The position numbers and the translations under genes are program-made. The notes under the pieces were generated by a model. The model was not told the origin of the DNA, did no database searches, and worked only from the letters and a program-made list of their open reading frames with translations. A stretch of DNA of 64,000 nt from Gnetum montanum (lineage: Eukaryota; Plantae; Gnetophyta), in contig MNCI01001153.1 in NCBI GenBank assembly GCA_015680685.1, forward strand, positions 751,160-815,159. The letters are read 5' to 3'. Below are positions 22,630 to 60,012 of this stretch, piece by piece (within the stretch, counting starts at the first letter, position 1; each line of letters begins with the position of its first letter).

Positions 22630-22862
22630 TGCCCCATGTGATAGTTTAAGGTCATTTTAGGCCATGGATAGTTTAAGGCTATTTAGGGCCATGCTATAGT
22701 TTAAGGACATTTCAGGCCATGGCTAGTTTAAGGCCATTTTGGGCCATGCTATAGTTTGAGGCTGTTTTGGGCCATGGGTAGCTATAAAAGAGAGTGGGTT
22801 GCTAGTTTTAGGTCTTAGCGGGTCATGCAATAGTTTAAGGTGATTCTGGGCCATGTGATAGT
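22630..22862. repeat. Tandem repeats (~26-35 bp, GCTATAGTTTAAGGCCATTTTGGGCCAT-like)
   Basis: Six to seven visible copies; core shared with 13340-13665 and 17270-17320. Confidence 0.8.
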
Positions 22863-27349: not shown

Positions 27350-27354
27350 AAAAT

Positions 27355-29394
27355 TGTAGCATCTAGAAATGTTGATGGTTAGAACACCAAGGGTCATCAG
27401 GCACATAGCTAAACCCTGAGTTCATGGGAGGGCCATGCTAGAAAAGATGGAAATGGGGTCCTTGACTAGTTCAGTTAATTAGATAGGGACTTATGTGGTG
27501 TAGAATAACCATTTGTGAATAGAGTTTTGAAAGTGTCACACACAAGAGTCAGGAAAACCAAGAATGGGACATACACAACAACGTGAGTGTGCTAATGTGT
27601 ATTAACAATAAAACTAAGTAATTATGCTAACAATTTGAAATACATGCTAAAAGAAAATAAAGTATGAGTTTAGGTGAAGAAATGCACCAACCCAAGTTTC
27701 AGGAATGTAGCTCTTAATTAAATGGTGTATTAAACTAGTACACAATATTAGACAAGCATAGCAAGATAGCAAGGTAGTATGGTCATAGTCTTTGGGGCAT
27801 TAGAGGCATAGTGTTGGCAGCCAATAGGGGAGCTAAACCTACTAGGTTGGCCATTATCATGCTATGCAGGTATGGAGTCATGATGCTCAACAAGGTGTCA
27901 TGCTTGAGTTCTTAAGTGTAGAGGTGAGGAAAATGTTGGAAATGCTCTAATGTTGAGATTTGCCGATCATCAACTCTTCACTTGGCAATCTTTTGCAAAA
28001 TTCTATTATAAAAGCCAACCCTTGGAATGTTGATTACTGGGGTATTTATAGAGCCAAGACTAATGAGGCATGTGGATTGGATGCCACGTGGCTTGGGTCC
28101 TGTGTAACATGAGTGTGAGTAGGTCACACTGACATGCTACACTCAAAGTGTCAATCTCAATGATGTATGCTTTACAGAATAGGAATGGGAACTAAAAATC
28201 TACCAAACTATGACCATACTACCCAAACCACATGTGCCAAAGTATAAAGGACTATCATGTACCTACAAAAAATGCTAAAACACAATGCAATTTGGAGCCT
28301 ATGCTCTAAGACTATGTCTTCCCCTTCTTTTGAGTAGGGTCAAGTGTAGGAACAATTTTGGAGATCAATAAGGGGTGCAAAAGGAAGGTAAATTGCTGAT
28401 CTTGACCACTAGAAAGATGTTGAAGCTAAGAAGAAGGTTGATGCCAAGTTTTGGGAGCTCCTAGAGGCATTTGAAGGTGTTTCCAAAGTGTTATGCTATC
28501 TATGCTTCCCAGCATAACGAAGCGTAGCATGAACACTTGAAAATTTTTGCAATTTTTGGCCTACTACACTATCTACATTGCACAACATAGCCAAGCATAG
28601 CACCAAATTTTTAGTAAATTTTGTCAAAATTGGAAATGCCACTATGGGATGTAGCAAGATAGGCAACTTTAGCAACTAGAAAATGCATCTTCCATGTCAG
28701 AAAAGCTTGATGCCTCCTATCAGCCTCAAAAACCTATGATGTTGGCTGCACTATGTAGCATAGTAGGTGATAGAAACAATATCAAATAGTTTTTTTAAAA
28801 ATTCACAAGGTTTCTTTATGGCATCCTAACCATGCTTTGAGGGTGAAGTAGGATAGGCAGTCTCAATACTAAAAAATTGCCAAATTTGACAAACTCTAGA
28901 TCCAACACTTAGGAAAATTTTAGCTCTTGAACTCATGGTACAGTGTCTACACTATGTAGTGTAGCAAACCCAAAAGATAGAAAATTTGCAAAAAAAAAAT
29001 TCCATGCTAAGCAGCTTTGACAACTCGTAGCCTAGCACGTTGGTGGACTGGCAACCAGGACATGTGTCAAGCTGGGCAAGTCAAAGAGCATAGCAAGCTT
29101 AATGGCTTGGGAGATAGAAAATTTTCCAAACTATTTGGTCCATCCTTAGTGCCCTTTTGACTTCTTTTGGCTTGATGTTTATGTAAATTAGCATTGTAAA
29201 CATGTGCTACGCTGGCTGTGCTAGGGAGCGTAGTAGGCAGACTTAGAAAAATTTTGCAAACATCAGGATTTCCATTGTGCTATGCTATCTACGCTGTGTA
29301 GCATGATGCCAGACTTAGAAAAATTTTGCTGAAGTTTTCACACTTGGACAATTTTGTTGTTGAGTCACAAGAGCCCAAAAGTAGTGGTGTTTTA
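27355..29394 (-). repeat. 5' LTR of the Tat/Ogre-like element
   Basis: Colinear with 9806-11774; followed by the GTACT TSD. Confidence 0.9.
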
Positions 29395-34360: not shown

Positions 34361-34834
34361 TGATAAAGTCAAGTTTTTATTACAAATGACATAATAGCAA
34401 TGACATCGTATCAACAATGTCATTGATACAATGTCAACACTATTAATATGTCATTGTTGATATGATATCTCAGGATGTGTGTAGCACTATAAATATGACA
34501 CTTGGATGCACAATTCTCTAACTTTTCATTTCCATAGTAACCAAACTATTTGAATTTCATTTCTTAAATTTAGGTTTAGTAACTAGTAGTGTGAATGCCT
34601 ATAGTGGTGTGTGTCATAGTGAACGGAATCTTTGTTTGAGTAGTTTGTACTTGGGCATTAGTTGTGAATAGAAATAAAGATCAAAGCTATTTTCCATCAT
34701 TGTAGCATTCTCCTAGTTTACTGTTTTCACTTATTATAATGTTTACTATTTTACTATCATAATAATTTATTTTCCAAAGAACTTTATTTTCACTTGTTAA
34801 TAGTAAGTGGAATGAATATGACTAATTTTGAGGG
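34361..34834 (+). repeat. 5' LTR of element B, left part
   Basis: TGATAAAGTCAAG.. colinear with 53500-53970. Confidence 0.85.
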
Positions 34835-34847
34835 TGGTATCGGAGCC
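34835..34847 (+). promoter_or_regulatory. Minus-strand primer-binding site, tRNAiMet
   Basis: TGGTATCGGAGCC versus the canonical TGGTATCAGAGCC (one change, compatible with a G:U pair). Confidence 0.9.
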
Positions 34848-35000
34848 TTGTTGCGGTTCTTCGTCATTCACCGCCAGGGGTGGACGTGAGGGTTGCTCAT
34901 AAGCTCGTTCGTGCAGTGCGAGTAAGCCACGCCGTAACGGCCGACGGACAGGCGAGTAAGTCGTGCACGCTAGAATCTGAACGCAGAGTAGGCACGTCTA

Positions 35001-38000
35001 ATGGCGAGTTCTTCCCGAAGACCAACTCCAGGTTCTCAATCTACTTTCTCTTATATTCAACGTTTGTCAAACTATTGCTCCTCAGCGAATGCTAGTATGT
35101 TGCCACCACCTCCATGCCAAAAAGATTTCTATCCCAAATCCTCATTGCACACTTTTGAATCATTTCAGTCTATGCATTTTAGTGAATGTGATCTCGGTAT
35201 TGCTGGCTCTGGCCTTCGTCCAGTAGCTCTTACTTTTTTTGACCCGGGGGAGGTTGCTAAATGGAAAAAAGCAGGTTATCAATATATCCATCTTGCTGAA
35301 ATTGCTATTCACCTTCATCCACACTTCAACTATCATCTCAAAAAGCCTTACTGGATTGCGTTAATAGATAGGAGATTTAAATCGTTTCAAGAAGCCATTA
35401 TAACACAAGCTAAAGGTAGGTTAGTATCCGATGCTCTAATTATAACGATTCCTAACTTTACTCTCTCGCTTTCTGATCCACATTTGTTTAATAGTCTAAT
35501 GCTTATTACTTATATTCCTATTGATATTATAGATCGAAGTGTTTATTGCACAATAGGTACAAGGTTAAGTTTTAAATTATTTATTTCAGTCAGTATCCAA
35601 ACACTCTTACCTTTTGGCCAACAAGCTCTCTCTGTTGGTTCAACAAATTTAGAATACGGGACACAGATTAACACAGAGGATCTTCCGATCCATAGGCTTT
35701 TTCCAGACCTAGAAGATCCGTTAGAAGAATACTATGAGCAGAAAAGACCTAAAAAGTCTTTATTCAGATCATCATCTAAATCTCGGAGATACTATGTAGA
35801 ACTACAACCACCAAAACTCCTTCCTTATGATCCATTAGCTCCCAAACCTATAAAACCCACAAAACCAGTAATCCTGTTTAAAAAACAAAAATCAACTTAT
35901 GAAGAACAGGAAGAAAAAATAAAAAAGATGGGAAAAATGTTCAAAGAACTAGGTATCACTTTAGATCCTAGGAGAGTCATAAAACAAAAGGGAGAAAAAC
36001 CTGTAATCATCACTGAACAATCAGAAACAGATCAAAAAGGAAAAACCATTCTAGAAGAAGTCTATACATCTAGTTCTAGTTCTGAAGATGATGTACCATG
36101 CTCAATAAAATCATCACAAAGTTGTACGCATAAGAATCTACATAAGATAGATCATGACATTAGGTGTGTTGAGTGTGATGAGTTATTAAGGATCAACATG
36201 AATACGGAAGAACCAAAAGAAGTAGCACATATGATGCAATATAAGCCATCTGTAGAACAACCTTCTGAAGTCATTAAACTCCATAATTGGACTAACCATA
36301 AGTTATCCTATGTAAGTGACCAAAACTTAATGACATATGCAGAAGTAAAAGAAGTACAAAGAGATGTAAAAGATTTGCATAAAATATGGGTTCCTAAACA
36401 AAAAAATGGAAAATCTAAGGGTAAGAAAGAAAAGAAACCTGATCCGTCTGATCTAGATGGAATTTACTTAGATTCACCACCTATCACTCCTCCTAAAGGA
36501 AAAAAGAAATCAACAATACCTTATGTCCCAACTTATGTCCCAAAAAGACGACCAGTACATACAATTCCAAAATCTGAAAAAGGGAAAAAAGAGGAGGAAG
36601 AGATTAATGCTAATGAAGAAGATAACGAAACCCTTTATATTGGAAGTGAAGGATCTTTAGATGAAGAAGAAAAGAAAATGTTACAAAAACAAGGAATGAT
36701 CTTCCAAGATCCTAAAGATTTGACAGGTATGCAAATCCGAAAGACATCAGAAAAACCACCACCATATTTTAGTATGGACAACAAATCTATTAGAGAAAGA
36801 CAAAAAGAGATTGATAAAATCAGCGGTTTCATCGCTAGGCAAATTGTCTTAGAAAAGAAAACATATGAACATGCCATACTCAACGCCACATTAAATTTCG
36901 AGGGTATGTTAAAACGTTGGTGGAATTTCATAGAAGCTCCTGTACGAAAAAAATTATTAAATAATCCGCATGTTATTTTCTTAAATGCTATTACAAAAGA
37001 ATTCTTAGGAAATAAAGCTGATAGGGATAGTGCATATAGAACTTTGTTTTATAGTTCAAGATTACATAAGATTCAGGACATGTCTCCATTCCTTGACATC
37101 ATGGAAGAATGGTATTACTATGGAAAACTCATACATGACGTAGGTGCAAAAGAACATCTGTTAGGATGTCTTCCAACGCCTTTTGCTAGTTATTATCGAG
37201 CTCAACTTCAACATGAAGAAAAGGATCTCGAGGAAATGAGTTTTAGTGCCATCCGTCAATTCCTTGAAAAAGTCACAAGGGATCTGTGTGTCCAGCAAAA
37301 AACACAAAAATTAGTAGGATCCTTAACTAAACAAATAGGTAAAGACTTATGTTTACAAATGTGTCCTGAAGATAATTTTGGACAGCTAATTAGAAATAGA
37401 AAACAACAGTCTGAGCCATGTGTATGCAAACCTACACAACGTACATCACAAAAGTACTCAAAACCAAAGAAAGTCTGGAAACGGAAATTCCAGCCAAAAA
37501 TCAAACGAAAGAATTGGCCACAAAAACCTTTTAAAGGCATGTTTAAACGAAAACAAGGGCCGTATAAAAACAAGGAAGTCAGGTGTTTCATTTGTTCAGG
37601 GAAGCATTATTCTAACCAATGCCCAAAAAAGGATAATCATCCTCAACGCATTAATTTCATTGAAACAATGAAACTTACAGAAGATGATTTCTTCCTAACA
37701 TATGATTCTGACTTATCATTCTCAAATGGGGATATTTATTTAGAATCTTCAGATCAATATTCTAGTGAAATGGAATTCGAAGATATTCCTGACTACCCCA
37801 ATGAACCAGGCGAGTTAAATTATGATACAGATTCTTCAGGGTATATGTATCATGTTTACATGAATGAAGAATCAGGAAGTGATGATCTCTATGAAAGAGA
37901 TCCAACATATTCCATGTTAAAAAGCCAACTACGCCAATTAGAAAAGAAATGGCAAAAGGTTCCTTTAGATGACTTACATAAATTTAGGGCCTACAAACAC

Positions 38001-40190
38001 AAAGTAAAATCTAAACGGAATGAGATTGAAACACATAAGCAAATGATTGAGGAATCATTTGGTATATATCAAGATTCCCAGAATCCAAACACCGTAGATT
38101 TTGAAGAGGAGATACAAACACCACATACTGAAGAAAGAGCAGTTACACCGGATATACAAACTTCTATGTGGCGACAGTTTCGTATCAAGCAACTCAAGAA
38201 GTATCTTCAACAGGCCTCCGAGGAACTTGAACGCTTAGAACAACAAGAAGAGAGTTGGCAACAAGCAGAATATGAGAAGGAAACAAAACAGGTAAGCGTA
38301 ATCCTAGAAGTAAACTGTAATACTTCACGACCAATCTTACCTGCCTGTACATTTAATATATCATGGCCTAAATATCATAGGTATACAATAGATTTTTTGT
38401 TTGACACAGGCGCGGAAGTATCACTTGCTAGAGAAGAAACAATTCCATCTTGTTTTTGGGAAGAAAAGGAACCATCCCACATTTCCTTCAACACCCAAAA
38501 AAGATTACTCACAAAGCAAGCTAAGTTACCCGTTGTAATGCCTGATAAAAAAATAGTGTATTTTATTGTCTGTCAATTTCCTTTACCCTCTTATGATTGT
38601 TTAATAGGATCAGACAATTTACAATATTTTGATATTACGATTACTAAGCAATTTATCAAACTAGATGAACAGAAGTTCCCTAGGGTAAATGCTAGACAAC
38701 AGTTTAAAAATCAAAAACACCAAAAACATAATCAGAAAAGAGAAACTTGGATTGTTAACCAAATCGAAAAATATCAACCAAGTTTTGACGACATAAAAAC
38801 TCAATTACTCCAATTTGCAAATGATGACCCGACTGTGTTTCGTCATAAGAAAGAACATTGGTGTCAGATTGAATTACAAGATGGAGTAAAAGTAAAGTCT
38901 ACTGCACAACATATAGGAATGTCTCCTAGTCTCAGAAAAGAATGTGAATCAGAAATCCAAGAATATTTACAAAGAGGTTTAATACGACCAAGCACCAGTA
39001 TGTTTGCTTGTGCTGCTTTCTTTGTAAACAAACGAGCCGAATTAGTCAGAGGAAAAAAACGTTTAGTAGTTAATTATAAACCTCTGAATGATATTATTAA
39101 ATCAGTCCAACATCCTATTCCAAATAAAGATGATTTATTTCAACGACTGCCACATACGAATATCTATTCCAAGTTTGATTTGAAATCAGGATTTTGGCAG
39201 ATCCAGATTCAGGAATCTGATCGTTGGAAAACGGCTTTCACAGTACCCGGTGGATTATATGAATGGAATGTCTTGCCGTTCGGCATCAAAACTGCACCAT
39301 CCATTTTCCAAAAAATGATGGATTCTATTTTCCATTCTTATCCTTTTATATTAGCCTACATAGATGATATTTTAGTTCTGAGTAAATCGGTAAAAGAACA
39401 TTTAGATCATTTGCGTATTTTTTCTGACCTCATAGATAAAAATGGACTTGTCCTCTCACCAACAAAAATGAAGATCGGACAGTCTAACATTGAATTTTTA
39501 GGTTTAGAAATCTCTACTGGTATTATAAAATTACAACCACATATAGTCCAAAGTATTGTTCAGTTTCCTGATATCTTAGAGAACAAAGTCCAGATACAAC
39601 GGTTTTTAGGCTGCATAAATTATGTTTCTGGTTTCTTTAAGAATATAGCTAAGGAACGAGATGTATTAAATATATTATTACAAAAACATTCTCCTCCATG
39701 GACCCCTGCATGTACTGAGGCTGTGCAGAAGATCAAACAAGCATGCCAAGAATTGCTGCCACTGTTTCTTCCAGGTGAAGGTAAGTTCATCCTTGAAACT
39801 GATGCCTCTGAATGTTTTTGGGGCGCCACTCTAAAACAAGAACAAAACCGTACGATCAGGATCTGTAGATATGTTTCTGGAAAATTTAATGAAGCACAGC
39901 AGAAATATCACAGTTCTCATAAAGAACTTCTAGCCATTGTTAAGGGCATAGAAAAATTTCGGTTATTCCTCCAACCACAACGTTTCATCGTCAGGAGTGA
40001 TTTAAAACATTTTGACAAGTATCTACAATCCAAAAACCTAACAAAGGTGGCTCATACACGGCTAATCTGATGGAGTTTATTTTTGGCTAATTTTGAATTC
40101 GATAGTGAATATATTGAAGGCTCAAAAAATTGCCTTTCTGATTTTTTAACTAGAGAGTTCCAACTCTCTAGTAGTACTAATGTTTTATAG
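35001..40190 (+). CDS. Caulimovirid ORF1 polyprotein: 30K movement protein - coat protein with zinc knuckle - aspartic protease - RT - RNase H. About 1729 aa, with one premature TGA at 40068-40070
   Basis: MP: YIHLAEI..LIDRRF..PNFTLSLSD. Knuckle: CFICSGKHYSNQC (37584-37622). Protease: FDTGA (38400). RT: AAFFVNK..RLVVNYKPLN, SKFDLKSGFWQI, YIDD (39357). RNase H: ETDAS..KELLAI..RSD. The frame continues past the stop as WSLFLANFEFDSEYIEGSKNCLSDFLTRE to TAG at 40188-40190. Confidence 0.93.
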
Positions 40191-41140
40191 TTTTATTTTC
40201 AGAACTACTCTGTAGCGAAGGATGGACTCTTCGTTCCTCAAGGAGATTACGTCCTAGTTTACCAAATGAAAGATTTCTTAGTTTTCCTCAATATTTTAGT
40301 GAAACTAGTAGATTTGGTAATGCATGGACTGCTTTCTGTAATGCCACAAGATCTCAAAGTTCTGATGCCATCATCACTCAAAAGGTTTTTTCAGCCCTTC
40401 CACTGCCTGCAAGAAGATCTCAATGGGATCAAATTCCAGCTCCATACCTTTTCCTGGCCACAGATGTGAATCTCACTAATCTAGAATTCCGTAACTGGTA
40501 TTCTGCTGATTGTTTAAACTGGCCATATTACCAGCCAAGTGATTTTCATGTTTACCGCATCTCTTTTAGTCCCCTCAGTGCACCGCCAGACAATGATGAA
40601 TTATTCTGGAATTGGTGGGCTAAATTCGGTCATTCCCCTTCTCATTTACCAGCCAATTATCCTGGTCCTCTTCGCACAAGTCTCTATGGCTACCGGGGTG
40701 ATTTCTCATTCTATAGGAATCCTGATCACATGGCCTGGAATTTTTTACACATGGCATCCAACCCAGTCTATTTTCTCATTACTTGCATATCCAAAAGGAC
40801 AGACTGGCAACTCACATGGGGCGAAGCTTTTTACCAAGATGTGTACACCGCTAATGCCTATGATATCTAGCACCACTGTCACATCCATTTAAAAGTCCCG
40901 TATACTTTAGAGCTTTATTATATGGACCGCAGGATTGATGAATATCGTAGCTCTGGAGGAAAGGAGATCAAACTTTATCTGGTTGGCGAGCACTCAGAAG
41001 ATGCTGATGATAGCACGGATAGCATGCCTAATAATTCTCCCGGACGATATGATTACAGCTCTGAAGACTTCCACAACCATACAGACGATTCTGATGGACA
41101 TAGTGTCGATTTTGGTCCAAATAGTCCACCATCACGTTAA
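40181..41140 (+). CDS. Caulimovirid ORF2, ~319 codons, no 5' AUG, one premature TAG at 40868-40870; function unknown
   Basis: One frame is open from 40181 and joins track ORFs 40466-40870 and 40922-41140 through HHCHIHLKVPYTLELYY. Contains FWNWWAKFG and an acidic Asp/Ser-rich tail. Confidence 0.75.
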
Positions 41141-41143
41141 AAA

Positions 41144-41225
41144 GCTGTCTGCCACAATCTCTTAAAGTGGATCCGAATCCTAAAAGGCTGTCTGCCACAA
41201 TCTCTTAAAGTGGATCCGAATCCTA
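41144..41225 (+). repeat. Perfect 39-bp direct repeat, period 43, upstream of the viral TATA box (candidate enhancer)
   Basis: GCTGTCTGCCACAATCTCTTAAAGTGGATCCGAATCCTA at 41144 and 41187. Confidence 0.9.
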
Positions 41226-41275
41226 GAAAGTAGATCGTCCCAGTTGGCATCCATTAATGTAAGGCGGTTTGTAAA

Positions 41276-41285
41276 CTATAAATAG
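41276..41285 (+). promoter_or_regulatory. TATA box of the pregenomic RNA promoter
   Basis: CTATAAATAG in the intergenic region after the last ORF, the usual caulimovirid position. Confidence 0.8.
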
Positions 41286-41519
41286 CAATGTGTGTGTGTG
41301 TAAGCATATGGTAGATAAGAATGCAAGTAGCATAAGTGAGTAGTCGGCAAGTGTGAGTTTCTTTCTGCAAGAGTGAGTAGTTATAAGGAGATGATATCAG
41401 TTTCTTGATGCTCTCTGCTCAGAAACTAAGCATTCTCTCCACTGAAAGAGAAATCGTTCTGTGATGCGCTTTGCTCAAGAACAAGAATTCCTTTCAGTTC
41501 TGTAAATACTGGTGTGTGC

Positions 41520-41525
41520 AATAAA
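41520..41525 (+). terminator. Viral polyadenylation signal
   Basis: AATAAA ~240 nt after the TATA box, with upstream TGTAA (41501) and downstream GT-rich sequence; would define the terminal redundancy. Confidence 0.7.
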
Positions 41526-41610
41526 ATGATTTGTTTTGGCATATCTGTGTGTTATTTGGTCTGCATTCAAATGAGCGTATGTATTAGTTCTGTGTGAACG
41601 CTGCGTACTG

Positions 41611-42022
41611 AGAACATTTGATAATCCTAGTAGTATTATCAATTGCTTCACCTAGTAGTGTAATGCTTGGTAATCCTAGTGATAATTATATGAACCCAAG
41701 ACATGTTTGGTAAATTAGGAATAGTTATCCATTGCCATAGGATAGATTTACTTACTTGTTCTCACTTAGATTTAGTACCTACTTTCATCCTTATCGTGCC
41801 TACAATTTGGAGTATTAGTGGCCAATCAACATCACTTATCATATGCCTCACTACAAGCTAAACCATACACTTAGACTTTACTAGCTTGAGTGGGAAGATA
41901 ATGATCATGATCTTAACTCAACTACTAGCATATCAACATTGACAATCCATGAATTACAATAGGCTACATGTGAATACTCATAACTTGTATGAATGCTTGT
42001 TGGATTACTACACCACTCATTA
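41611..42022 (+). repeat. 5' LTR of element B, right part
   Basis: CATTTGATAATCC.. colinear with 53985-54325, with ~80 bp extra. Confidence 0.85.
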
Positions 42023-42023
42023 T

Positions 42024-42041
42024 TGGCACCATTGTTGGGGA
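42024..42041 (+). promoter_or_regulatory. tRNA-Asp-type PBS (Athila-like)
   Basis: TGGCACCATTGTTGGGGA is a deamination-decayed form of TGGCGCCGTTGCCGGGGA. Confidence 0.75.
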
Positions 42042-42167
42042 TCTATTAATGTATGATAAGTAATTAGTTTGACAAAGTTCATTGTGTCAAGAATTTAGAG
42101 TTAACTTTCATAATCTTTTAATAATTCTAAAAATAATCACACTTAACCAAGTATCACATAATACAAC

Positions 42168-45100
42168 ATGGATTCAACCAAAGATAAACTATCATCTACT
42201 AAATAGACAAAAAGGAGTAATGACAGAACCAATGACAAAGAAGACTATGGTATGCCCATGAAAATAATAATATCATACACTCAAAATGATTCTTACTATC
42301 TAAATTTTACTTTAATCTTCCACCATGATGGTCAAATGAGATGGAGAGACATATAGGGCAACATAGTTCTGCCTCCAAAATGTTTAGCACTTAGCATGCT
42401 TCAAACAACCTTAAGGGGGATGAATCTAAACCATGTGTGAGAAGGGTACCATGTGTAGAATCACATGACAAGATCCTACCAACCCACAAAGGCATAATTG
42501 AAGGGAGATTCTACTATGAAGATTAAACATGTGCAGAATAAAGGAAACTAGGATAACTCTTTAGTTGTTCAAGAAGAACTAAATGGTGATGCATTTATCA
42601 TAGAAAAACCCCAATAAAATAATGAGGAGCATTCCCAAATGCCTATCATTTAACTTGAAGAGCCTATCAAAGTTCAATTACATTCTACCCTAGTAGAGAC
42701 ACCTAGGATGGAGGCAACAAACTCCAAGTATAAGTAGCACTCAAGGCCAAGAGCTTTTGCTGGATCTTACAAGGAGGAATATTAGATTCATACAAGGAGG
42801 ATAAGCTAGCATCATTTCCCTACTACCTCAACTTCATCCTCATGATCTTCAGTGGACTTTAACAAGAGGAGACAAAGGTATTGAGACCATGATATGAAAG
42901 AACAAAGGACTCATGATCATTATGACCATTGCTCAAGATACTTTGATGAAGAAGATGAAGACCATAAACTAAGAAGTCATAGGGATAGAATAGAGGATTC
43001 AGAGTGGTATTAGCACTAATGAGAGCATCACTACAACATAGCTTAGAAACCCAATCATGATGATGAACCCTTGCTAGAAACCTTTAGTATGATCAATATC
43101 TAGAAAGCTTTCTATATATCAACCAGGCATGTAAGGGATAGCTACATTAAGTAGCTAGACATGAATAAGATGCCTAGATTTGGGGATGGTTATAATGTTA
43201 ATCCTCAACACCACCTTCAAGGGTTTCATGATGCCTACACCCTATAGAACATAGAAAGTAATTAATAGAAATTAAAGTTGTTCTCAAAGACAGTTGTGAA
43301 AGAAGTTGAAAGCTAGTATAGATTATTTGAATTAGAATTAATTAGGAGATGGAATACCATGCTAGAACTCCTTAATGATAAATATCAAACTTATTCTTGG
43401 ATGTCCAATCTATGAAAATAAATCCAAGGATGGAAGCAAGGGATCCATGAACCCCTTGATGCAACAACGGACTGATACTATTCATTGTTGCATAGATGTC
43501 TAGGCCATGGATGTTCTCAATGGGAACAATTGAGGCACATTGTTGATGAGATTTGTAATAATACTAGAGAGACCCTTGGGGTTTATTCCTAGGGTCAATA
43601 ATTCAAAATTTCTAGCCATCAGATACAAAGATTTATTGAGCAAGTGGTAATGGAGGAAGGTGAATTAAAGAAAAGAGAATCAGCAAAAGAATATAACAAA
43701 GATCCATCCATTCAAAAAATGGATGTAAGAGTATGTGACTCATAAGCAGAGGGGGCCTTGGACTAGGTGATTTAGAAGTAAATACTAGCTATTCAAAAAC
43801 TTTTCATGGACATAATGACCAAGGTAGAAAAGATGTGGAATTTGATTAATTAAAATTTTGCAATAGCCTTAAATATTGTTAAGGAATGAAATAAGTAAGC
43901 CTTTGATGAAGGAAAAGATAAGAAGAAGAAGAGAGACTTTAGATACAAGGAAATGGTGACCTCAGTGGCTAAATGTTTAGAAACCAACTTCAAAGATGAG
44001 AAAGGATGTGTTGTGTGCCAATGTGAAAATTCCAAGGGATGTTGTTCTATGATGCCACATTTATAGGACATAGGAGCATATGCACTCAACCCCAAATGCC
44101 ATAAGAAATAGATGCCCAAATCGTTACCTTACCCTCAAGGTAACAACAAGCAAGCCTTCCAACCTATGTACTATCCTAGTGGAGCCTACCCATAGCCATA
44201 GGAACAATATCATCAGTAGTGGAAAAAACCCCAATTATGGGCCATGCCACCACCATGAGAATAGTACCCTTATTGGTAGCCAAACCCATGTGGATACTAT
44301 CTACAATGTACAATCTCTCCAAGTAGTGCAGTTGTTGAAGCTCCATAATACTATCTAGTCATATACCATAGACTGACATCGCCAAGGATAGACTTAAGCT
44401 CATACATGAATTCATAAGTAGTTGGTTCATCAAATCAACATCCCAATTCTTTACAACCAGTACCACCTATTATAATGTAGGGGGAATTTCCATCTCAACC
44501 ACAATAGAAAAGTGCGACCAAGGTGGTTAACATGTAGGGAAAAGTGATCATGCATGAACCACAATCTAGGAAATGACTATTCATTTGAATGAGTTTAAAA
44601 AAGATTCAAAGTAAGGGGACACATCTACTTTTACTTCATCCACATCTAATCCTCCAAGAAACAACAAGTTTTCTTTGTCATCTAACACCAATATTATAAC
44701 TATCATGGTAACACAAACCACTATTTATTGGATTAAGGTATGAGCATTTCCATAGAATGAATAGATCTAGGGAGTCCCTTGGTATACCTTCAAGTAGCAA
44801 AACAAAAAGCCTGCAAGGGTCTACTAGATTTTGGATCAAGGATGTAATTGATCTCATAAGATATGTATCAAGCCTAGAATCAACCATCATTGAAGAAGAG
44901 TAACATATGGCTCGATCTTTCATATCAATTGATCATAGTTCCACTAGGAAAAGTGGATGATGTGATCACTGTTATTAGTGGTTGGCCTTATCTTGCTAAT
45001 TTTCTAGTTATCCATGTAGGTAAAAGCTAGGAAGAGTTTCCAATTATAATGTGAAGAGCTTAGCTTAACACTATAGATGCTAAGCTATAAATTAGAGACT

Positions 45101-48100
45101 TGTCCTTGGAAATCTCAAAATATGATGAAGCTGACATCATTCAAAGATGCAAAGTTCCATGCATCACATACAATAATAATGGGTGCAATTGCATGTAGAA
45201 AATATGGCCAGTTCAATAGAGAAATACCAAAGCATGTAAGAGATGTATAGAAGAAATGTGTATGCAAAAATCTCTGTATGCAGTAACCACTTAACAAGAA
45301 GGCACCCAATGGTTGGTCAAAAATACAAAGATAATATCCAAGAAATACATGGAACCAACTAATCAAACCATAAGTGCTTATGTAGATGAAACTGATAGAC
45401 TAGAGAATTTAAGGAAGAAGCATCCCTATTCACATGAAGGTTAGAAAGAAGAAATAGATTGGGGCAGTTAGAAGAAATAGATTAGCAGCATGAGAGTATG
45501 CTTTCTTAAAAAATAAGAAGTTGATGATAATAAATGCTAACTTGAATGAAGATCAAAAAAATAATTTATTGGAAGTTATTAACAAGTAGCCAACAATGTT
45601 CATGTGGTCCAATGATAAGATCACATGCAGTAATCCAACAATTTTTCAACATTAGATATATACCAACCTACTGGTGAAACCACGATGCCAACCCAAAAAA
45701 GGCTCAATCCAAAACTAAAAGTAGTCATGTAGGGGATGAAAAAAATTACTAAAGGTAGGATTCATCTATTCTATTGCAAATAGTAAATGGATTAGTCGTT
45801 TAGTAATCATTCCAAAGAAAGGAGGCAAGTGGTTCGTGTGCATCAATTTTCAAATGTTGAACTCTACCACATTCAAGGATCATTTTCTTTTTTTGTTTGT
45901 TTACCAAGACCTATATACTATTGCAAGACATGAGTACTATAGTTTTCTAGATGCGTACATTGGATACAATTAGATCTGCATTGCACATAAGGACTAGGAG
46001 AAAACAATGTTCACTAGTCCATGGAAAATGTTTACCTACAAATAGATGCTATTTGGTCTTTGCAATGCACCCTTCACATTCCAAAGACTCATACTCAGTA
46101 TCTTCCAAAAGTAAATAAGAAATGACATTGAAGTTTTCATGGATGATTTTTCCACATACTGGCTAGATTTTAGAAAAGCATTGGACCATTTAGAGTAGCT
46201 ATTGAATTGTTGTGTAGAGACAAATCTTAAGCCTAAAGGCCATAGATAGTGAAAGATGTTAGATGTCAAATAGAACATTACTTAGAGGCCATAGATAGTG
46301 AAAGATGTCAAATTTCATATAGAACATTACTTAGAGGCCACATATATAGTGAAAGATGTCAAATCATTCTTAGAATATTAGGATACTATTGAAGGTTCAT
46401 AGAGAATTTCTTAAAGATTGCAAAATCATTAGTAGAACTTACAAAGAAGGATGCATCCTTTGAATAGATAGAGTCTTGTGAAAAGGAATTTGAAACCCTA
46501 AATAGAAGCTAATCAAGACACCAATCCTTCAATCTTTTAATTGATCCAAGCCTTTTCATATTACAATAGATGCTTCCAAGTATGTGCTTAGTGTAGTATC
46601 AACACAACTAGATGATCAAAAAAGACCCTACTATATACACCATAGCAGAAGCATAACTAGGGCAAAAGTGAACTATACCACAATAGAAAAGGAGCTTATG
46701 ACCATGTTGTATGCACTTGAAAAGTTTCTTCATTATGTGCTTGGGTACTAGATTTCTGTCCATATCAATCATAGTGCCATTTGATTTCTCATAAATAAGC
46801 CAATGGTTAGTCCCAGAGTGATTCGATGGCTTGTTATTTTACAAGAATTTGACATCACAATGATTGTAAAAAAGGGCATAGAGAATGTTGTAGTTGATCA
46901 TTTTTCAAGGCTTATATGGAATTCCAAAGATCATGTAAAACCATTATCTGACTAATTTCCTAATGATATTTGTTCACTCAAATAGTTATGGCTATAGCAT
47001 TAATGGTGAAGTCATACATAGCTTATTACATCACTTACTTAAAAACTCAAGAGATTCCTAATTTATGGAGAAAAGAAACAAAAAGAACAATTCCTTCAAT
47101 AGGTAAAGAGATATATGGAAATCAATGAAAACTTGTACAAGATTTGTGCAGATGGGTTAGTTAAATGATGTGTGCCAAAATGTGATCAATAGTGGATCTT
47201 ACAAGATGTCCATTAAGGTCCATGTGGAGGCCACTATGCAAGGAAAATAATGGCACTAAAGTTAATGATGGTAAACTACTTTTGCCCTACCTTGTTTAGA
47301 GATGCCCACAACTTTGCATAATGTTGTGAAATGTGCCAAAAAGATGGAGGAATTACGGTTAGGGATGAAGGGCCACAGTAGTGTATACAACCATTAGAGC
47401 CATTTGATATATGGAGAATTTATTTTATGGGATCTATAACACCTATGTCGAATGGAAAAACATAAATAATTGTGATCATGGATTATTGTACAAAGTGGGT
47501 AGAGGTAATAGTAGTAAAATATTGCATCATTAAAATAGCTACTAAGTTTTTTCAACAACATGTGGTGAATGGATTTGGAGTACCCAACATGCTTATATCA
47601 AATAAAGAAATCCATTTTACTAGTGATGATTTTAGAAAAATAATGCAATAATTGGGTGTAAATCATAAATTTACTACACCATATCATCCCCAAGCCAATG
47701 GTCAAGGTTAGTAACCATGAAATTACTAACATTTTAACTAGGATAGTTTGTAAGTTTAGGAAGGATCAGAGCACTAAGCTTAACAATGCTTTATGGGCCT
47801 ATAGGACAACATGAAAATTATGCATAGGATATTTACCATATGAGCTAGTTTATGGTAAACAATTGATGCTCCATATCTACATAGAGCTTTGAACTTTAGC
47901 TACTGTTAGTGAACTTGACTTATACTTGAGCTTAGCCTAGAAAGAACGAATAATGAATCTAAATCTCTTAGATAAAAATAAAAATGAGGTCCATAAACAC
48001 TACTCCAAACAAAGGTATGATGCAAGGATAAGACAAGTGTTTATACAACTAGGAGATAAGGTCCTTTATTATAATCCCACTCATGTTCCTCAAAAATCCA

Positions 48101-48300
48101 AATTTCAAAAGTTTTGGAAGGGACCTTACTTCATCCAAGAAATTTATCCTTCAGGTACCTTCCCCATTTTTCATCCATCCAACCCACATAAGCTCATCCT
48201 TGTCAATATCTAATAGGTCAAACTCTACCATGAATATCCCAACTCTTTCAAGGAGTCCATCCAATTTGTCCAAATATCTTCAACTTGTTTCCTCTTTAGA
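42168..48300 (+). pseudogene. gag-pol of element B (degenerate; no additional RNase H seen)
   Basis: Protease LLDFGS at ~44821; RT MLFGLCNAPFTFQR and FMDD (46136); RNase H DASK..NYTTIEKEL; integrase H..CGGHY..CEMCQ, TTPYHPQANGQ and WKGPY. Confidence 0.85.
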
Positions 48301-50469
48301 ATAGTTGATCCTAATAATAGTTGTGGGGGTGTCCATTTGGACATGTAGGTACTTCACTAAATTTTCATTTTCTTTTTACTTTTCTATTCTTAATATATTT
48401 TTTCCATTCTTTTATATGTTTTAATTTCTTCATACTTTCTCAATTCTATAACTTTTTCTAGTTCTTTGATGAGTTTTCTTTCTTTAAACATTTTTCATTC
48501 TTTTCATCTTTTTCATTCTTAATATCTTTTACATTTTTTTAGAAAAAAATCATTCTTTGTTTTCCTTGTACCTGTACATATTTTTGTTAAATTGTTAATA
48601 AAACACCAAGAATAAGTGAACATGTAGTTTCAAATGAGGTGAAGATTTCTCTATGTTATCAAGTCATAAGGGATTGGTTTTTTGTATAGTGAGGCCATAA
48701 CATCCATCCACTTATTCCACCAATAAGAAGTTCTTATACTAGCCTTGATGATATTCTTTTCCTAATAAACTAAGAATAAACTTATCATCATTATGCCTAC
48801 ACAAAAAAGTGAAGAACCAAGTGAGAATGTAAAGGGAGTGACATCAAGAGAATTTGTGGAATCTTTTGGATCACTATTGTATGATCTATTATGTTGCTAA
48901 GTTTGTAATTATATCCTTGTAGATCTAATGAAAAATGAAAGTAAGAGTCCAATAAGTGTTGCCTTACCATGTCACTAGAAAGACATGTTACCCATGCTTG
49001 AAGGTAGGTGGCTTCTTAGGAATTTCAAAAATAATAATAATACAGTGCAATGAATAAAATCCTCCCTTGGAAAATATGCAAATTGATAATACTCCTTGCA
49101 TTAGTAATAGTCTTATGGTTGTGAATCTAAGAGGTGATACAATGTGATGTCATTGGACAATGGTCTAGACCTGGTTTGAATCTTGGAAAAAAATGCTAAT
49201 GATTAATTTAACCACTAATAAAACACAAGAGTTAATTATGCCCATGGTAAGACATCTCACATCCTGATTTCAACAATCCTTTCTGAAGACCATTTTGCCT
49301 CACTGTATAATTGTCCATAACTTATGGTTCTGAATAATACAGTGTACTTTTCCCAACTTTATGATACTAAGATGTGTGTTTTTTTAGATAGGTATGCTTT
49401 ATGTTCAACTCCTTAAGTGCCTAAGGACAATTTTAGGCATGGTTATACAAGGGCACTAAGGGCTAGAGCCTTCTTTGAGAAGGATTCACATGTATAACTT
49501 TTGTATTTCATACTTGATGAGCAATTCCACATCATCTTGTTCCTTCTAGAAATAATGAAATCAACGAATAATTCTCTTCACAATCCAATAAATCCATTCA
49601 TACACCGAACATTCACTACCCATCTTGTATCCATCTTTTACCCTTTAAGAGCTTTCACAACATGAAATTCTTTCTTTATAAACTTTAAACATCTAAATTT
49701 CAAATTCATAGCATCATGACTATTCTAAGATCCTTTAATAATGCTTACTATCTTCCTACCATTTAGATTGACTCATTTTTATCCAATATAAAATGCTCAA
49801 AAAATTGAAAATTTTTGTGATGATGTCATTGATATGATATATGAGTCCCTCATATGTCATTGATTCAATGTCAAATCAACAATGTCACATCACAAAATTA
49901 CTATATATATTTGCAATGACTAAGTTGATTTTTCATTTGAATAAATAGAAACCAAAGGAGTTTTACCATTTTTTCTCATAAGATCTAATACATTGACTTT
50001 CCCAAGACATAAATTGTGCCCTAGAGCTCTAATTTTTGCAATTTTTAAATCTATTTGATCCTGGAGTGCTCACCATAGTCTTTGGGGGGTAGTGGGGGAG
50101 TAATATCAAGGAAGATCTGAGTAAAATGTTTCAAAAAATTATCTAACTCCAAAAGATAGTTCAAAAATAAGTAAGATAAAATATTAAGGATATCATTATG
50201 CATTTAGTACATTTAAGCAAAATTATTTAGTCAATTCTTCTAATAAACCATTTTAGCCAATTTTAAGGTATTATGAGCCAAACAAATAATAAGTGAGAGG
50301 TCATAGGAACTAAATATATAACATCTAAATAATTTCTTTTTGGAAATTTCTCTAACTCTATAATCATAGTATAATGAATACTTAATCTAACCATGGTTAT
50401 GAGCAAGGTAAAGACTTATTAAAAAATGATAAGAACATTTTAATAGTCTTAAATCCTTATTGATTATAG

Positions 50470-53290
50470 ATGGCACCAAAAAGGATGCCAAAAGGAGGAC
50501 CCTTGCAACAAGGAACTAAAAGACTAAGAGGCTAAGGAAGAGGCCACAATGGAGAAAAATCTCCAGTAGTAGATCAAGGAAAGTAGGAAGCTTAATTCTT
50601 TAGCATCCATCAATAAGCACCTCCTACCAAGAAATTTGCCCAAGCAAAGGCTAAGGCACCACAACTACTAGAATAAGGAAAATGCCTCACATTGTCACCT
50701 AAACGCCTCCAAGCCATTCAAGAGAAGTTCATCATGTCCATAGTTATTGTGGGACTTAACTTTGGTCCATTTATGAAGTTTTCCAAAAATTGTATCAGAA
50801 CCAAACTTCAATAATCTTCCTTGTGATCTACCTTGACAACAAGTGGAGACTGGTACTTAGTAGAAACCCTTCAATTTTGGTACAATAAACAAGCTAATGC
50901 TATAGTCAATATAGAAGGAATTTTGTATCATATTCAATGGAGGTAATAGCCAAAGCCCTAAATTTGCTAAATGAAGGGGCTAATGTTACAGAGATATCAA
51001 CAAGGTTTGACACTACTATGAAGAGATTGTGCTGCATAGAGCCTATGGAAAGGAAGATAAGGAGTATAGTGAGCTGATTATAGAAGAGAATATATATTTT
51101 AAAATTGACACCTACCACCTATTCCTAACAAAGAGACTTGCTAGAATATCTACCTATGTAGCTAGAGGAATCACCATTTTGATGGGGAAATTCAATGTAA
51201 ACATCATCCATTTGCACTTCCTCAAAATACAAAGGCAGTTTGAAAAGAAGAAGGTGGGAAATACTACACTTCCATTCCCTTGCCTAATCAAGAAGCTATG
51301 TAAGTAGGAAGGTATTTTGGGTTACACAAATGATGTTTTAAAAAATGCTCAAAATGCTTCATATGCTAAAATATCCAAGCCCATACCTCCAAAGAAAGAT
51401 CAGTTGGAAAAATAGGTAGGCATTGAGGGAGCAATAGGCTTAGCTCCTATTAGTACCATTCAAGCTATTGGCTAGTAGTAGCAAGTATGACCTAGTAAGT
51501 AGTAGCCAATTAATTAGTAGCAATAACAACAATAGCAACAATGGCATCAGTAAGAGAAATAGTAGCAAGTTCCACTACTACCCCTATAAGACTACAAATC
51601 CTCAATGAGTCATTTGTTGTAGATTGCAGATACTATTAGCTGTAGAACACATGAGGGATCCAATTTCTATAAGGTAATTAATAATGTTGTTAGAATCATA
51701 GCTTGAACTAATCTTGCCAATTGACAAATATCTTTGTAGTTAAGAGGAGGGGATGCATGGTTATAATAGATATTAAGGAATGCTACATCATTCCAAGTGA
51801 TGGTGGAAACTAGAAAAGGATCCATAATAGTGGTAATGCAACATCAAGATGCAATGGAAGCCATTGAAGTGATCATTGATTACATCAAGGAGTGTTTTAA
51901 CATCCTTATTGTTCCACTCGCTGATGTTTTAGGAGAAAGAGATACTCAAATGCTTACCAGTTCCTCAATGATTCCTACTGAACATGAAGATGTACTCAAT
52001 AGATTGCTATAGATGGAATAGGTCATGAAAAATCTCTTTGATATCCCCAATGATATCACTACAATTCAGTTTGATTTGATAGCCACCAAGGATAAGTTGG
52101 TCATGGAAAAGACTAGGGCAAAGCATGTTGAGAATGAAGTCCATAGACAACAAGAAGAGCTTGTGATCCTAAGAGAATGGAAAAGGGATCAAATGCAATT
52201 CATTATGCCTAGCCAACTTGATCAATTTTGTACAAACCACATTAATCATCTCATTAATGAAAACATGGGGATGGAATGTGAGAAGGAGAAGGAAGTATGG
52301 GATGCCTTAATGGTCAAAGCACAAACTTATGCACATGCCAAGAAACTCATAGCCCTATAGCAAGAAAATAAAAAATTAGCTACAAACAATGCGTGATTAA
52401 CCAATGTGGAGAAAGAAAAGAATGTCATCGAGGAGAGAATTTAGCAACTCTAAGAGAAACTAATATAGTTCAAATAGGACATAAGATGCTTGGTTGGAGA
52501 AAATAGAACATTGTTAATGGAATAATTTTGATCATTTGTCAAAAGTTTGCAATTAAGATAAGCATGTGGCAAAATGCAGCCAAAAAGCATGAAAGGCTCA
52601 AGAAGCATTTTCATGATCACGTGGGCATGTATAAGTAGATTAATAAGAGAGAAATCCAAATGGCTAAAGCCAAGATTAGTTTGATATTTGTGTAGAATAT
52701 AGACTAGTAGCTAATCTTGGATAGCCTGGCCCATGTCCACCAAGCTAAAATTAAAAATAAATACATGCAGATCAATGACCTTACAAGATACATGGGGTTA
52801 GTAAATCTCTAATATGCTAACTTGGCCATGTTAACAACATGTAGACTAAAAAATGAATTAAAGTAACAAGTAGTAGCAATCTATGCATTATATGAGAAAG
52901 AATTTACTGATCAAAAAGATGCTTTGTAGAAGTTCCATATGAAGATTTTAAAACTTGAAGTAGTCAAAGCTAGCTACTAGGGCCAAAAGAACATTGTAGC
53001 TAACCTAGCCAAAAGAATGAAAAATTATCAAGAATAGCATAAAATAGATACAACATTCAAAACAAAATAGTGGCACTTTACAGAGAGGTATGTCAAAGTA
53101 AATCAAATGTTCCCATAGCTACCATGTCCATGGAATGTACTAGCCTTGTCACACATTGCACAATAGGCATGGAAGGTACATGATCCTAGAATGGAGGAGA
53201 AGCTTTAGGCATTGAGAAAGCTATATTAATTTAAATAGCCTAATGATAAAGGTATGTAACTAATGAAAGAGCCACCACCACCAAACACAT
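50470..53290 (+). pseudogene. Extra (env-position) ORF of element B: basic N-terminus, plant-transposon-protein-like middle, Gln-rich linker, long coiled coil
   Basis: Starts MAPKRMPKGG; fragments TLPFPCLIKKLC and 52025-52360; many CAG/CAA-derived stops. Confidence 0.6.
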
Positions 53291-53499
53291 AGGCTATATT
53301 GAGACCCTTTATCTTTTTCTGCTTTATTTTGTATTATCAAGCACTTATTCCAAATTTTGTAAAACATCACTATGGCATTCCAAGTAATGTAAATAGTCTG
53401 TTAGTCATGTCATCTCAAATCTACCTCCAAATTTTTTAAGGAACTCTACCCTCATTTTTTCTTAACTTGAGGATGAGTTTTTAATCAATTGTGGGGGTA

Positions 53500-54325
53500 T
53501 GGTAAAGTCAAGCTTTTGTTACAAACAACATCATAGCAATGATATCATATCTATGATGTCATTGATACGATGTCAACACTCTTAATACATCATCATTAAT
53601 ATGATGTCTCAAGATGTGTGCAGCCCTATAATCATGATGCTTGAATTCATAATTTGTGAGCTTTTCATTTCCATAGTCATCAAACTCTTACAATTTTAGT
53701 TCTTGAATTTAAAATTAGCAACTAGGAGTGTGAATGCCCATAGTGTGGTATGTCATAGTGAATGGAATCTTTGTTGGAGAAGTTTGTACTTGGGCACAAG
53801 TTGTGAATGAAAATAAAGATTGAAGCTATTTTCCACCATTGCAACATTCTCCTAGTTTACTATTTTCACTTAGCATAATGTTTACTATTTTACTAGCATA
53901 ATACTTTATTTTCCAAAGCACTTTATTTTCACTTGTTGATAGTAAGCAAAATGGATACACTTGATTTCAAGCATTAAGTGTGATCATTTGGTAATCCCAA
54001 TAGTATTATTGCTTAGTTCTTAGCTCACGTAGTAGCATAATACGTGGTAATCCTAGTGATGATTACATGAGCTCAAGATGTATTTGGTAAATCAAGAATG
54101 CTTATTCATCACCATAGGCTAGAATAGATTTACTTACTCATTCCTAGTTAGATTTGGTACCTACTTTTATCTTTATCATGCCTACACTTTGGAGAAATAG
54201 TGGCCAATCAACATCACTTATCATATGCCTCACTACAAGCTAAACCATACACAGATTATGATTAAGTGAAGTGTGAACACTCATAACTTGTATGGTTGGG
54301 TGTTGGATTACTCCACTACTCATCA
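53500..54325 (+). repeat. 3' LTR of element B (uninterrupted)
   Basis: TG..CA termini; PPT at 53491-53499. Confidence 0.9.
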
Positions 54326-56933: not shown

Positions 56934-59900
56934 TGTTAGGTGTATTGTTAATTTTAAGTTTAAAACACCTTCATGTTGTAACAATTTCCATGTTGACAAA
57001 TTATTCTTGGCATGTTGGCTGAAAATAACAAAAGCCAAAGTATATAGTATGTCAAAAGAATATGTAACCACTCACACCCAATTTGACCATGATTAATTAT
57101 GAATTATAACCCCATAATTTAGCTTTTACCCAAAGCATGGCATTATGAAGACTATATAAGTGGATGCTTTGGTGGTCTTACAATCACACCTTCACCTAAT
57201 CAATGGGTGTATGAGGCATAATTCAAGTTTTAGTCTCTTCTTCTTGTGAAAACTTGATCTAAGCTTGTTGTAAGTATCAAAGAAAAGAAGACTTATATTT
57301 CTAAGTCTTTGTAAGAGCTAGAGTCATTGCTAGGGTTCTCATATGCTTTCCCCAAGATAATTTCTTGTATTCTTGATGCATTTCTTCTAATTTCATAATT
57401 GAATATCTATTTCTATCGCTTGATATTACTTTATTATCTTACTCAATTGATGTGTAAATTAAAAAAAATAGTATCAAAGCATAGTTCATTTGATTCTCAA
57501 GGCTCTTATCTCATTAAGTGCTTTAAGATGGTAACGATTGCTAAGTACATTGAAGAAATAAAAAAGTTTAATAGCAAAAACTACAATCTTTGGAAGCTCC
57601 GAATGGAAGATTTGCTATTTGAAAAGAAACAAGGTGTATGCATCAATGGAATTAAATAAAATATCATGAAAGGTAAAGACTAGAATCAGTTAGATCATCT
57701 AGCTTTGGAAACAATTTGTAAAGGTATTTCTAATCCTATGCTTATAAATTTACAAGATGAAGAGTCTGCAAAAGGATTATGGAATGTTATGGATAAGATA
57801 TACCAATATAGTTCTTACTCAAATAATTACATCTTAAAAGCTAATTATTATTGTTAAAGATGTCTAAAAATAATGCTATTAATCTCATCTTATTGATTTC
57901 AATACTATTTTGAGCTAATTATAATCAATTGTTAGTAAGATGGATAAAAGAGATCAATGTATTTCCTCATTACAATTACTTCCTAATTCATGGAAAAATA
58001 TTGTTAGAATACTACCAATATAAGTACCTCTTTAAAATTACTTTTTACAATAAAAAAATAAAGAATAAATACACAAGGAAAATTTGAAATCAAAAGGATA
58101 CTCTTAAAAGGAGGGTATTAACTATGAAGAAGGTTTTTCACGAGTGGTTAAGTTAACATTGATAAGATCTTTAATGTCTTTTGTAGCCACTTTAGATCTT
58201 AAACTTGAACATATTGATGTTAAGACTATGTTTCTTCATGGAGATCTTGATAAAGAAATCTACATGCAATAGCTTGAATGTTATGTGGTTAAGGGCAAGG
58301 AAAACATGATATGTCTCTTACTAAAATACTTGTATGGGTTGAAACAATCCTCTATGATGTGGTATAAGAAATTTAATTCTTGCATGATAACATCTAGTTT
58401 TGTATGGTTGTTAACAACCCTTGTATTTATCTAAAGGAAAATTCAAAAACTTGTTTAAAATTGCTATTTTATATTGATGATATTTTGATAGTAGGGAACA
58501 ATGTGCAAGAAATCACTAAGTTGAAATGCCAAGTATCATCTCAATTTAAGATGAAGGACCTTGGTACCAGCAGAAAAGCATTAGACATGAAAATTAAAAA
58601 GGATAAAAAAGAATAAAAGTTATGGCTTGGTCCATCTAAATATGTTAATAAATTTTTAGAAAAATTTAATATGTAGGATTGTAAGTTAGTAAACACTCCA
58701 TTATTTGTGATCATGAAATTATAAATGGAGAAATGCCCTAGAAAAGATGAAGAAATGTAGAAAATGCGAAAAATCCCCTATACAAATATTGTAGGAAGCC
58801 TCATGTATGCAATGGTTTGTAGTAGGCTTAATATTACATATGTAGTAGGATCTAAGAGTAGGTTTATGTCTAATCCTTGTAAGAAACATTGCATGGCCTT
58901 AATAGAATTCATAGGTATATTTGAGATACTATTAAGTTTTCCATCTATTATGAGAAAAGTTCCTTTGGATTGCATGGGCTTGTGGATGTAAATTATAGAG
59001 GTGAACTAGATCACCAAAAATCCATAAGTTGATATGTTTTTTAAAATAGACATAGGTGTGGTTAACTATATTAGCAAAAGACAAAGCTTTGTTGCATTCT
59101 TAACAACAAAGGTAGAGTGTGTAGTAGGTTCTTAAGCAATAAAAGAAGTAGTTTGGCTACAATGATTTGTCAAAGACTTTAGATAAGAATAAAAGAAAGT
59201 AAACATCTCTTGAGATAACCAAAGTGCAATATTTCTAGCAAAGAATCCCAAGTTCCATGTGGAAAAAACACACTATGATAAATTATCATTTTATTTGGGA
59301 TCAAATTAAAAAAATAAGGATTTCTCTAAAAAAGGTTCCTACATCAAAAGATCCACTAGATATGTTAAGGTAATTCTTGTGCATAAGTTTAACTAGTGTA
59401 GAAAAGAAATTCGATTGTTAAAATGTAAAATACAATTGTTGCTCCTAGCTATAAATCCTTAAAATAAATAACCAATGGAAGAATCTTAGATATGTTGTTA
59501 ATTTTAAATTTAAAACACCTTCATGTTGTAACAATTGCCATGTTGCAAAATTATTTTTGGCATGTTAACTAAAAGTAACAAAATCCAAAGTATGTAATAT
59601 GTCAAAATAATATGTAACCACTCATACCAAATTTTATCTTGATCAATTATAGATTATAACTCCATAATTTGGCTTTTACCCAAAGCATGACATTATGAAC
59701 ACTTTATAAGTGGATGCTTGGGTGGTCTTACAATTACACCTTCACCAATTATAGGGTGTATGAGGTATAATTCAAGTTGCAGTATTTTCTTAATATGAAA
59801 GCTTGATCCAAGCTTGTTTTAAGTCTCAAAGAAAAGAAGCCTTTGATTTATAAGGCTTGCTAGGAGCTAGAGCTATTTCAGGGTTTTTTTTATGTTTCCC

Positions 59901-60012
59901 AAGGGTAATTTCTTATGTTCTAGATGCATTTCTTCTAATTCTATAATTGAATTTTTATTTCTACTTCTTGTTGTTACTTTATTATCTTACTTAATCAAGG
60001 TGTAAATTAACA
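56934..60012 (+). mobile_element. Internally deleted Ty1/copia element (~3.1 kb)
   Basis: ~530-bp LTRs at 56934-57464 and 59484-60012; decayed Met PBS TAGTATCAAAGC at 57469. Confidence 0.88.
57528..59430 (+). pseudogene. Copia gag N-terminus joined directly to RT/RNase H; protease and integrase deleted
   Basis: KFNSKNYNLWKLRMEDLL, then DVKTMFLHGDL, LYGLKQS, FYIDDILI and PYTNIVGSLMYAMVC. Confidence 0.85.

Follow-up and report, generated by a model that had tools for sequence, protein, structure and literature searches.

A decayed Ty3/gypsy element in the 64-kb window of Gnetum DNA analysed here carries, within its 5' LTR, a caulimovirid genome copy of approx. 6.8 kb (the window is the whole stretch of 64,000 nucleotides, to which all coordinates refer). 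The insert belongs to clade B, occupies positions 34827/34835-41608, lacks an integrase, has a permuted gene order and resides in a host element that is much older than itself. It is probable that a single viral genome, likely of unit length, was captured in the LTR by end-joining repair of a break after it had opened at the minus-strand discontinuity. The general pattern has already been published, and the locus is a tidy example of a known process. The main idea of the first-pass annotation, namely that a unit-length genome opened beside the discontinuity was captured without an integrase and with a small loss of target DNA, holds and fits the published patterns; its base-level reading of the junctions, in contrast, is probably wrong, judging from a contig of run X5 (see below).

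The viral copy is 6782-6783 bp long and thus falls short of the 7.1-9.8 kb given for Caulimoviridae genomes in the consulted part of PMC13308828. Its main coding region is a 5.1-kb open frame on the forward strand (34992-40070; first ATG at 35001), and the encoded ORF1 polyprotein (35001-40070) contains, in the order characteristic of Caulimoviridae, a movement protein, an aspartic protease, reverse transcriptase (RT) and RNase H, matched by PF01107, PF00077, PF00078 and PF17917/PF17919, respectively, all above the curated cut-offs. A CX2CX4HX4C zinc knuckle is visible in the translation and is conserved in P0002, the nearest protein among the matches listed, while no Pfam match to a coat domain was obtained in ORF1. 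An in-frame stop lies near the end of RNase H, and the RNase H-like frame continues for approx. 39 codons beyond it. ORF1 is collinear with P0002, so that the short length reflects either a genome small by nature or sequence lost elsewhere than in ORF1. The second coding region (40181-41140, forward strand) consists of several open pieces in differing frames; the two pieces scanned gave no Pfam match, with a profile library that may lack PF31063 (DUF8797). Within the viral insert, no Pfam match to an integrase or to DUF7746, DUF7588 or PF22909 was found, and self-BLAST revealed neither a viral terminal repeat nor LTRs. Just past the last viral open frame, the intergenic region carries a 43-bp tandem duplication (41138-41223, forward strand), which is missing from X5 and X7 contigs, where one copy is skipped. 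The remaining part (41277-41608, forward strand) comprises a putative viral promoter, leader and poly(A) signal, with TATAAA at 41277, AATAAA at 41520 and the terminal motif GCTGCGTAC. Predicted folding of the leader (41305-41609) does not exceed that of shuffled sequences (z -0.94; 12 of 100 shuffles were equally good), and no clear plus-strand polypurine tract stands out among the seven purine runs of at least 13.

On the basis of its ordered domains, the lack of an integrase, the primer site and the grouping of its RT, the insert is an endogenous member of the Caulimoviridae. In a quick IQ-TREE analysis of RT-RNase H comprising 44 rows (the query and 43 chosen from 120 listed matches), a caulimovirid group of 41 rows was separated from three gypsy-type rows with a support of 100. 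The insert and P0002 group with endogenous proteins of Citrus, Taxus and Adiantum (SH-aLRT 95). P0002 shares 66% identity with the insert over RT-RNase H and 43% overall, whereas the other listed proteins reach at most 50% over RT-RNase H; none of the named proteins among the listed matches is a close relative of this caulimovirid lineage. The insert lies outside a group of 11 rows (support 100) in which the proteins with DUF7746 and PF22909 are found and which, judged from these domains in a tree built without named references, appears to be florendovirus-like. As regards the genera Petuvirus and Gymnendovirus, for which a single ORF of over 2100 aa is expected, the same tree places the insert in one broad group with the Citrus and Taxus proteins without resolving its position, and its ORF1 is shorter. 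The viral family is present in runs of four species labels, with many divergent contigs across all 30 bins, where depth is not to be read as copy number. A 21-base viral-end pattern gave 0 matches in the metagenome contigs; moreover, protein-based scans yielded 39 pattern matches in the metagenome contigs and two in the viral contigs, none of which was confirmed as a related locus.

The order of landmarks in the insert is permuted. According to the consulted part of PMC5902531, the caulimovirid primer site is preceded by the promoter and leader, and the minus strand initiates one base before the primer site, where an unrepaired discontinuity stays. In the insert, the tRNA-Met primer binding site (TGGTATCGGAGCC; 34835-34847, forward strand) begins with TGGTATC and has one mismatch to the usual form, matching the caulimovirid site printed in the available part of PMC13308828 at 12 of 13 bases. 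The differing base is position 34842, a G in place of the A of that printed site, which could possibly form a G:U pair with the tRNA. The primer site is located at the left end of the insert, and the TATA (41277) and AATAAA (41520) motifs at its right end; thus, the insert is a viral circle opened beside the primer site. Since the genes are followed, not preceded, by the promoter and poly(A) signal, and since a stop interrupts ORF1, the copy by itself would not yield a terminally redundant pregenomic RNA.

The two repeats flanking the host element are the true LTRs of one Ty3/gypsy-type retrotransposon: both start with TG (at 34361 and 53500), a PBS-like motif follows position 42022, a purine-rich tract precedes 53500, and the order RT-RNase H-integrase is found between them. 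All parts lie on the forward strand. The 5' LTR is split by the virus into a left (34361-34826; CpG observed/expected 0.21) and a right portion (41615-42022; 0.08), the internal region (42023-53499; 0.06) is decayed, with many stops and frameshifts in RT, RNase H, integrase and an extra ORF, and the 3' LTR (53500-54325) is free of virus. The internal domains were read by Pfam with X placed at stops. The decayed extra ORF between the integrase and the 3' LTR (50400-53300) has a weak match to Transposase_32 (E 0.0007, below the cut-off), and the layout is one that we take to be Athila/Tat-like. A tandem array of three units of 49-51 bp is located inside the gypsy pol (46234-46382). The target site duplication (TSD) of the retrotransposon itself could not be read at the two outer LTR ends (CTCTG vs CCTAG). 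Positions 34361-34832 and 53500-53971 align without gaps and are 83% alike (K2P 0.199), and 41609-42023 is 84% alike to the 3' LTR (K2P 0.185). Across the retrotransposon, the observed/expected ratio is 0.06-0.21 for CpG and 0.0-0.27 for CHG, as against 0.59 and 1.12, respectively, in the virus. The LTR divergence (K2P 0.19-0.20), together with a depletion of CpG and CHG that affects the retrotransposon and not the virus, indicates that the virus arrived much later; it was therefore inserted long after the retrotransposon.

Several other repeats occur in the window. Long direct repeats of approx. 2 kb, 77% alike (9805-11772 and 27354-29392), are probably the LTRs of another old retrotransposon, and decayed, related coding stretches that are 65-67% alike (3821-5496 and 15180-16852, inverted; 5497-6011 and 47643-48135) are probably retrotransposon pol remnants. 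Two 527-bp direct repeats in AT-rich DNA (56936-57462 and 59486-60010), 84% alike and 2.5 kb apart, possibly represent a small LTR element. A short tandem array of three 55-bp units is found at 22634-22798.

The extent of target loss can be estimated from LTRs that do not contain the virus. The 3' LTR reads as it was quoted in the first-pass annotation, which had taken it for the empty site; a direct check of the sequence agrees with the quotation, and the 3' LTR was rejected as a true empty allele, being a diverged paralogue that is 83-84% alike to the 5' LTR. It has 13 bases at the homologous site (53972-53984), compared with six kept in the window (41609-41614). Contigs of four runs (four species labels) were also aligned, at 88% likeness; five contigs in the resulting table (12 rows shown, 15 more not shown) bridge the flanks without virus, and among the rows shown the number of bases between 34832 and 41615 is 13 in three of the five and 14 in one, the fifth being a deletion variant, though these contigs are paralogues picked by their alignment to the flanks and are hence biased towards matching. 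The comparison with both the 3' LTR and the three contigs upholds the earlier estimate that about 7 bp were replaced, and approx. seven host bases were likely lost at insertion. The loss would be 11 if 41609-41612 is not of host origin and 13 if 34827-34832 is purely viral, which gives a range of 7-13. One further X5 contig (depth 17.1) joins the left flank at 34831 to 41650; it neighbours a 195-base contig (depth 31) that is identical to 41651-41845. This joining contig is a candidate for the orthologous empty allele.

The two junctions of the insert coincide to within a few bases, in both the viral and the host sequence, which argues against the insertion of a tandem or longer-than-unit-length form that was later reduced to one unit by deletion or recombination between short repeats. 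Arrays are common according to the parts of PMC13658181 and PMC10377300 consulted, a head-to-tail junction contig of the viral family is seen in X5, and the tetranucleotide TGAG present at both ends could have been left over from a terminal redundancy; collapse of an array, however, retains the original outer junctions, which would still need an explanation. Such a tandem origin is therefore unlikely, and the capture of a single unit is preferred.

At the viral ends, the start with TGGTATC (at 34835) and the end with GCTGCGTAC (41600-41608) followed by TG were both recovered from the sequence as first described. How much of the neighbouring sequence is viral can be judged from one X5 contig (depth 7.2, of another species label), in which 41609 is joined to 34827 through 33 letters. 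These consist of incomplete repeats of the viral end, in which the end motif is each time, three times in all, followed by TTTGA(GGG), and all partial repeats end or start within approx. 22 nt upstream of the primer site. The joint is thus a second junction at the same viral spot. As TTTGA(GGG) follows the end motif in this contig, the eight bases 34827-34834 are probably viral and would separate the primer site from the end motif, although the one contig on which this assignment rests has internal duplications, a different species label and a depth of 7.2. For the insert itself, this would mean that the circle opened 8 nt upstream of the primer site and that the redundancy is 0-1 base; of the terminal TG, probably only the T can be viral. 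Because the eight intervening bases are present at the left junction in the window, the genome would still be of unit length.

These observations bear on the exact form of capture first put forward, in which the opening of the genome lay exactly at the primer site, GG was added as filler and the terminal TG represented the first two bases of the primer site, used as microhomology. In its favour, TGGTATC does start at 34835, and the TG that follows GCTGCGTAC also matches host TGTGAT. In the X5 contig, however, all three occurrences of the viral end motif continue into TTTGA(GGG), and the primer site is reached via 34827-34834. GG (34833-34834, forward strand) precedes the primer site in this viral joint and is likely viral, so that its role as filler was rejected. 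The use of TG as microhomology finds no support either, since the contig continues with TTT after GCTGCGTAC; nor does GCTGCGTAC directly precede TGGTATC, a point that had been named for checking in other copies, eight bases standing between them in the sole informative contig. The exact form is thus quite improbable, and an opening somewhat upstream of the primer site is favoured.

The hexamer TTTGAG at the left junction (34827-34832, forward strand) is likely common to the host LTR and the viral end, and would constitute a microhomology of 6 nt. The chance of an exact 6-mer is 4.0e-4 per site, given the LTR composition. Of four informative virus-free LTR contigs, one agrees with the window up to and including 34832, two others up to 34831 and 34830, respectively, and one diverges after 34828. 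The 3' LTR has TTTCAAG where the window has TTTTGAG; the two would be the expected decay products of one CpG site, and TTTGAG can accordingly be of host origin. A microhomology of 6 nt at the left junction, rather than TG at the right, is therefore likely, as judged from LTR copies that are paralogues and that were picked by their alignment to these flanks. The right junction may be more complex. Its six ambiguous bases, TGAGAA (41609-41614, forward strand), are most simply read as host LTR, being alike to 53979-53984 at four of six positions, and this reading requires two transversions in six bases against a background of 0.05 per site. Alternatively, TGAG may be a short terminal repeat or represent templated bases.

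TGAG occurs at 34829-34832 and again at 41609-41612 (chance 2.9e-3 per site); thus, contrary to the initial statement that no TSD is visible, a short repeat does flank the insert, though it fits a TSD poorly. This repeat is what speaks for insertion at a staggered cut with a 4-bp duplication, e.g., by a borrowed retrotransposon integrase. As a TSD, however, TGAG requires an extra, independent deletion of 11 bp relative to the 3' LTR and three paralogues, and no exact TSD of the integrase type without target loss is seen, as the paralogues hold 13-14 bases at the site vs the two needed for a 4-bp TSD. Moreover, a viral origin accounts for the left TGAG as well, TG...CA is not found at the viral ends, and the virus has no integrase. 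Such a staggered insertion has little to recommend it and is about as improbable as the exact form discussed above. Transport of the virus inside the retrotransposon as a chimera, an idea proposed for banana eBSGFV (PMC10377300, in the part consulted) and compatible with the position of the virus in an LTR, was rejected as hardly credible, because the virus is found in one LTR only, virus-free LTR paralogues bridge the site, and decay and CpG erosion affect the host element but not the virus, an age contrast that already contradicts it.

For the preferred capture of a single genome by break repair, the following course may be proposed. A break opposite the discontinuity would linearise the genome and leave its primer side with a short 3' overhang, the viral DNA being opened approx. 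8 nt upstream of the primer site. The polarity of the minus strand places its 3' end at the left end of the insert, where it could anneal via approx. 6 nt (TTTGAG) to a resected host end. The right end would then be trimmed and end-joined with 0-1 nt of homology, and approx. seven host bases would be lost during repair. At the minus-strand discontinuity of CaMV, the 5' end is displaced over some bases by the overrunning 3' end; our search found no literature passage on this overlap. It is conceivable, though we regard it as tentative, that the exact 3' end of the minus strand at its overlapped discontinuity can be read off such copies: the overrunning strand would serve as the overhang for annealing at the host break, and junctions would be concentrated 8-22 nt upstream of the primer site, microhomology being confined to the primer side. 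If so, the gap-capture model would become a base-level, one-sided and testable rule for a high-copy family within an undescribed clade-B lineage. No report on a base-level offset or on one-sided microhomology was found, and the supplements of PMC13658181 and PMC4241990 (Supplementary Fig. 2) may contain such data. The locus suggests a rule of one-sided microhomology, which a single locus does not establish.

Caulimovirid entry into plant genomes is still described as a working hypothesis in the consulted parts of PMC13658181 and PMC10377300. The present locus is a clean single example, in which a non-repetitive target and many paralogous empty sites make the junction bases assignable; it supports the published bias of breaks towards the primer site and extends it beyond florendoviruses and tungro-like viruses.

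A close parallel in the sources, as far as their consulted parts go, is Florendovirus-1 of almond (PMC13658181): 77% of the 53 copies that are whole or nearly so are broken next to the Met-tRNA site without a TSD, and opening at the discontinuity followed by capture during repair is the working hypothesis put forward. The Gnetum insert likewise breaks beside the Met-tRNA site, and the two have in common a polyprotein with the MP-CP-AP-RT-RH plan, its CP part in the insert being putative and marked by the zinc knuckle, and a second ORF, present in the insert as pieces. Unlike Florendovirus-1, it lies outside the DUF7746-bearing clade and is without matches to DUF7746, DUF7588 and PF22909; its target is an old LTR rather than a TA repeat, and a probable 8-nt offset and 6-nt microhomology are readable. 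For ERTBV in rice and TPVL in tobacco, it has been reported that junctions cluster at the intergenic region and the discontinuities, and the free ends of open circular DNA were proposed as the substrate (PMC526188, consulted in part). However, 93% of ERTBV ends abut AT repeats, none of which is present at the Gnetum insert, and these viruses belong to a different clade. Empty sites with short gains or losses (PMC4241990) and capture as filler by NHEJ or MMEJ (PMC4241990, PMC10377300) are also described in the parts of these sources consulted. With respect to clade B, i.e., Petuvirus, Citrus petuvirus-like, Gymnendovirus/Pinus nigra virus 1 and Welwitschia viruses, the insert has the same polyprotein order (PMC13308828, PMC6256638, 10.1101/2022.02.23.481439) but differs from the references in an ORF1 of approx. 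1.7k rather than 2.1-2.3k amino acids and in a separate second coding region. The comparison can be extended to hepatitis B virus (PMC8398950, consulted in part). Although this is a protein-primed animal virus that is known to produce its double-stranded linear form during replication, whereas a linear intermediate is only proposed for the Gnetum insert, its linear DNA similarly integrates as that of a pararetrovirus without an integrase, with junctions at a replication landmark, joining by NHEJ or microhomology, and an integrated copy that is permuted against its promoter.
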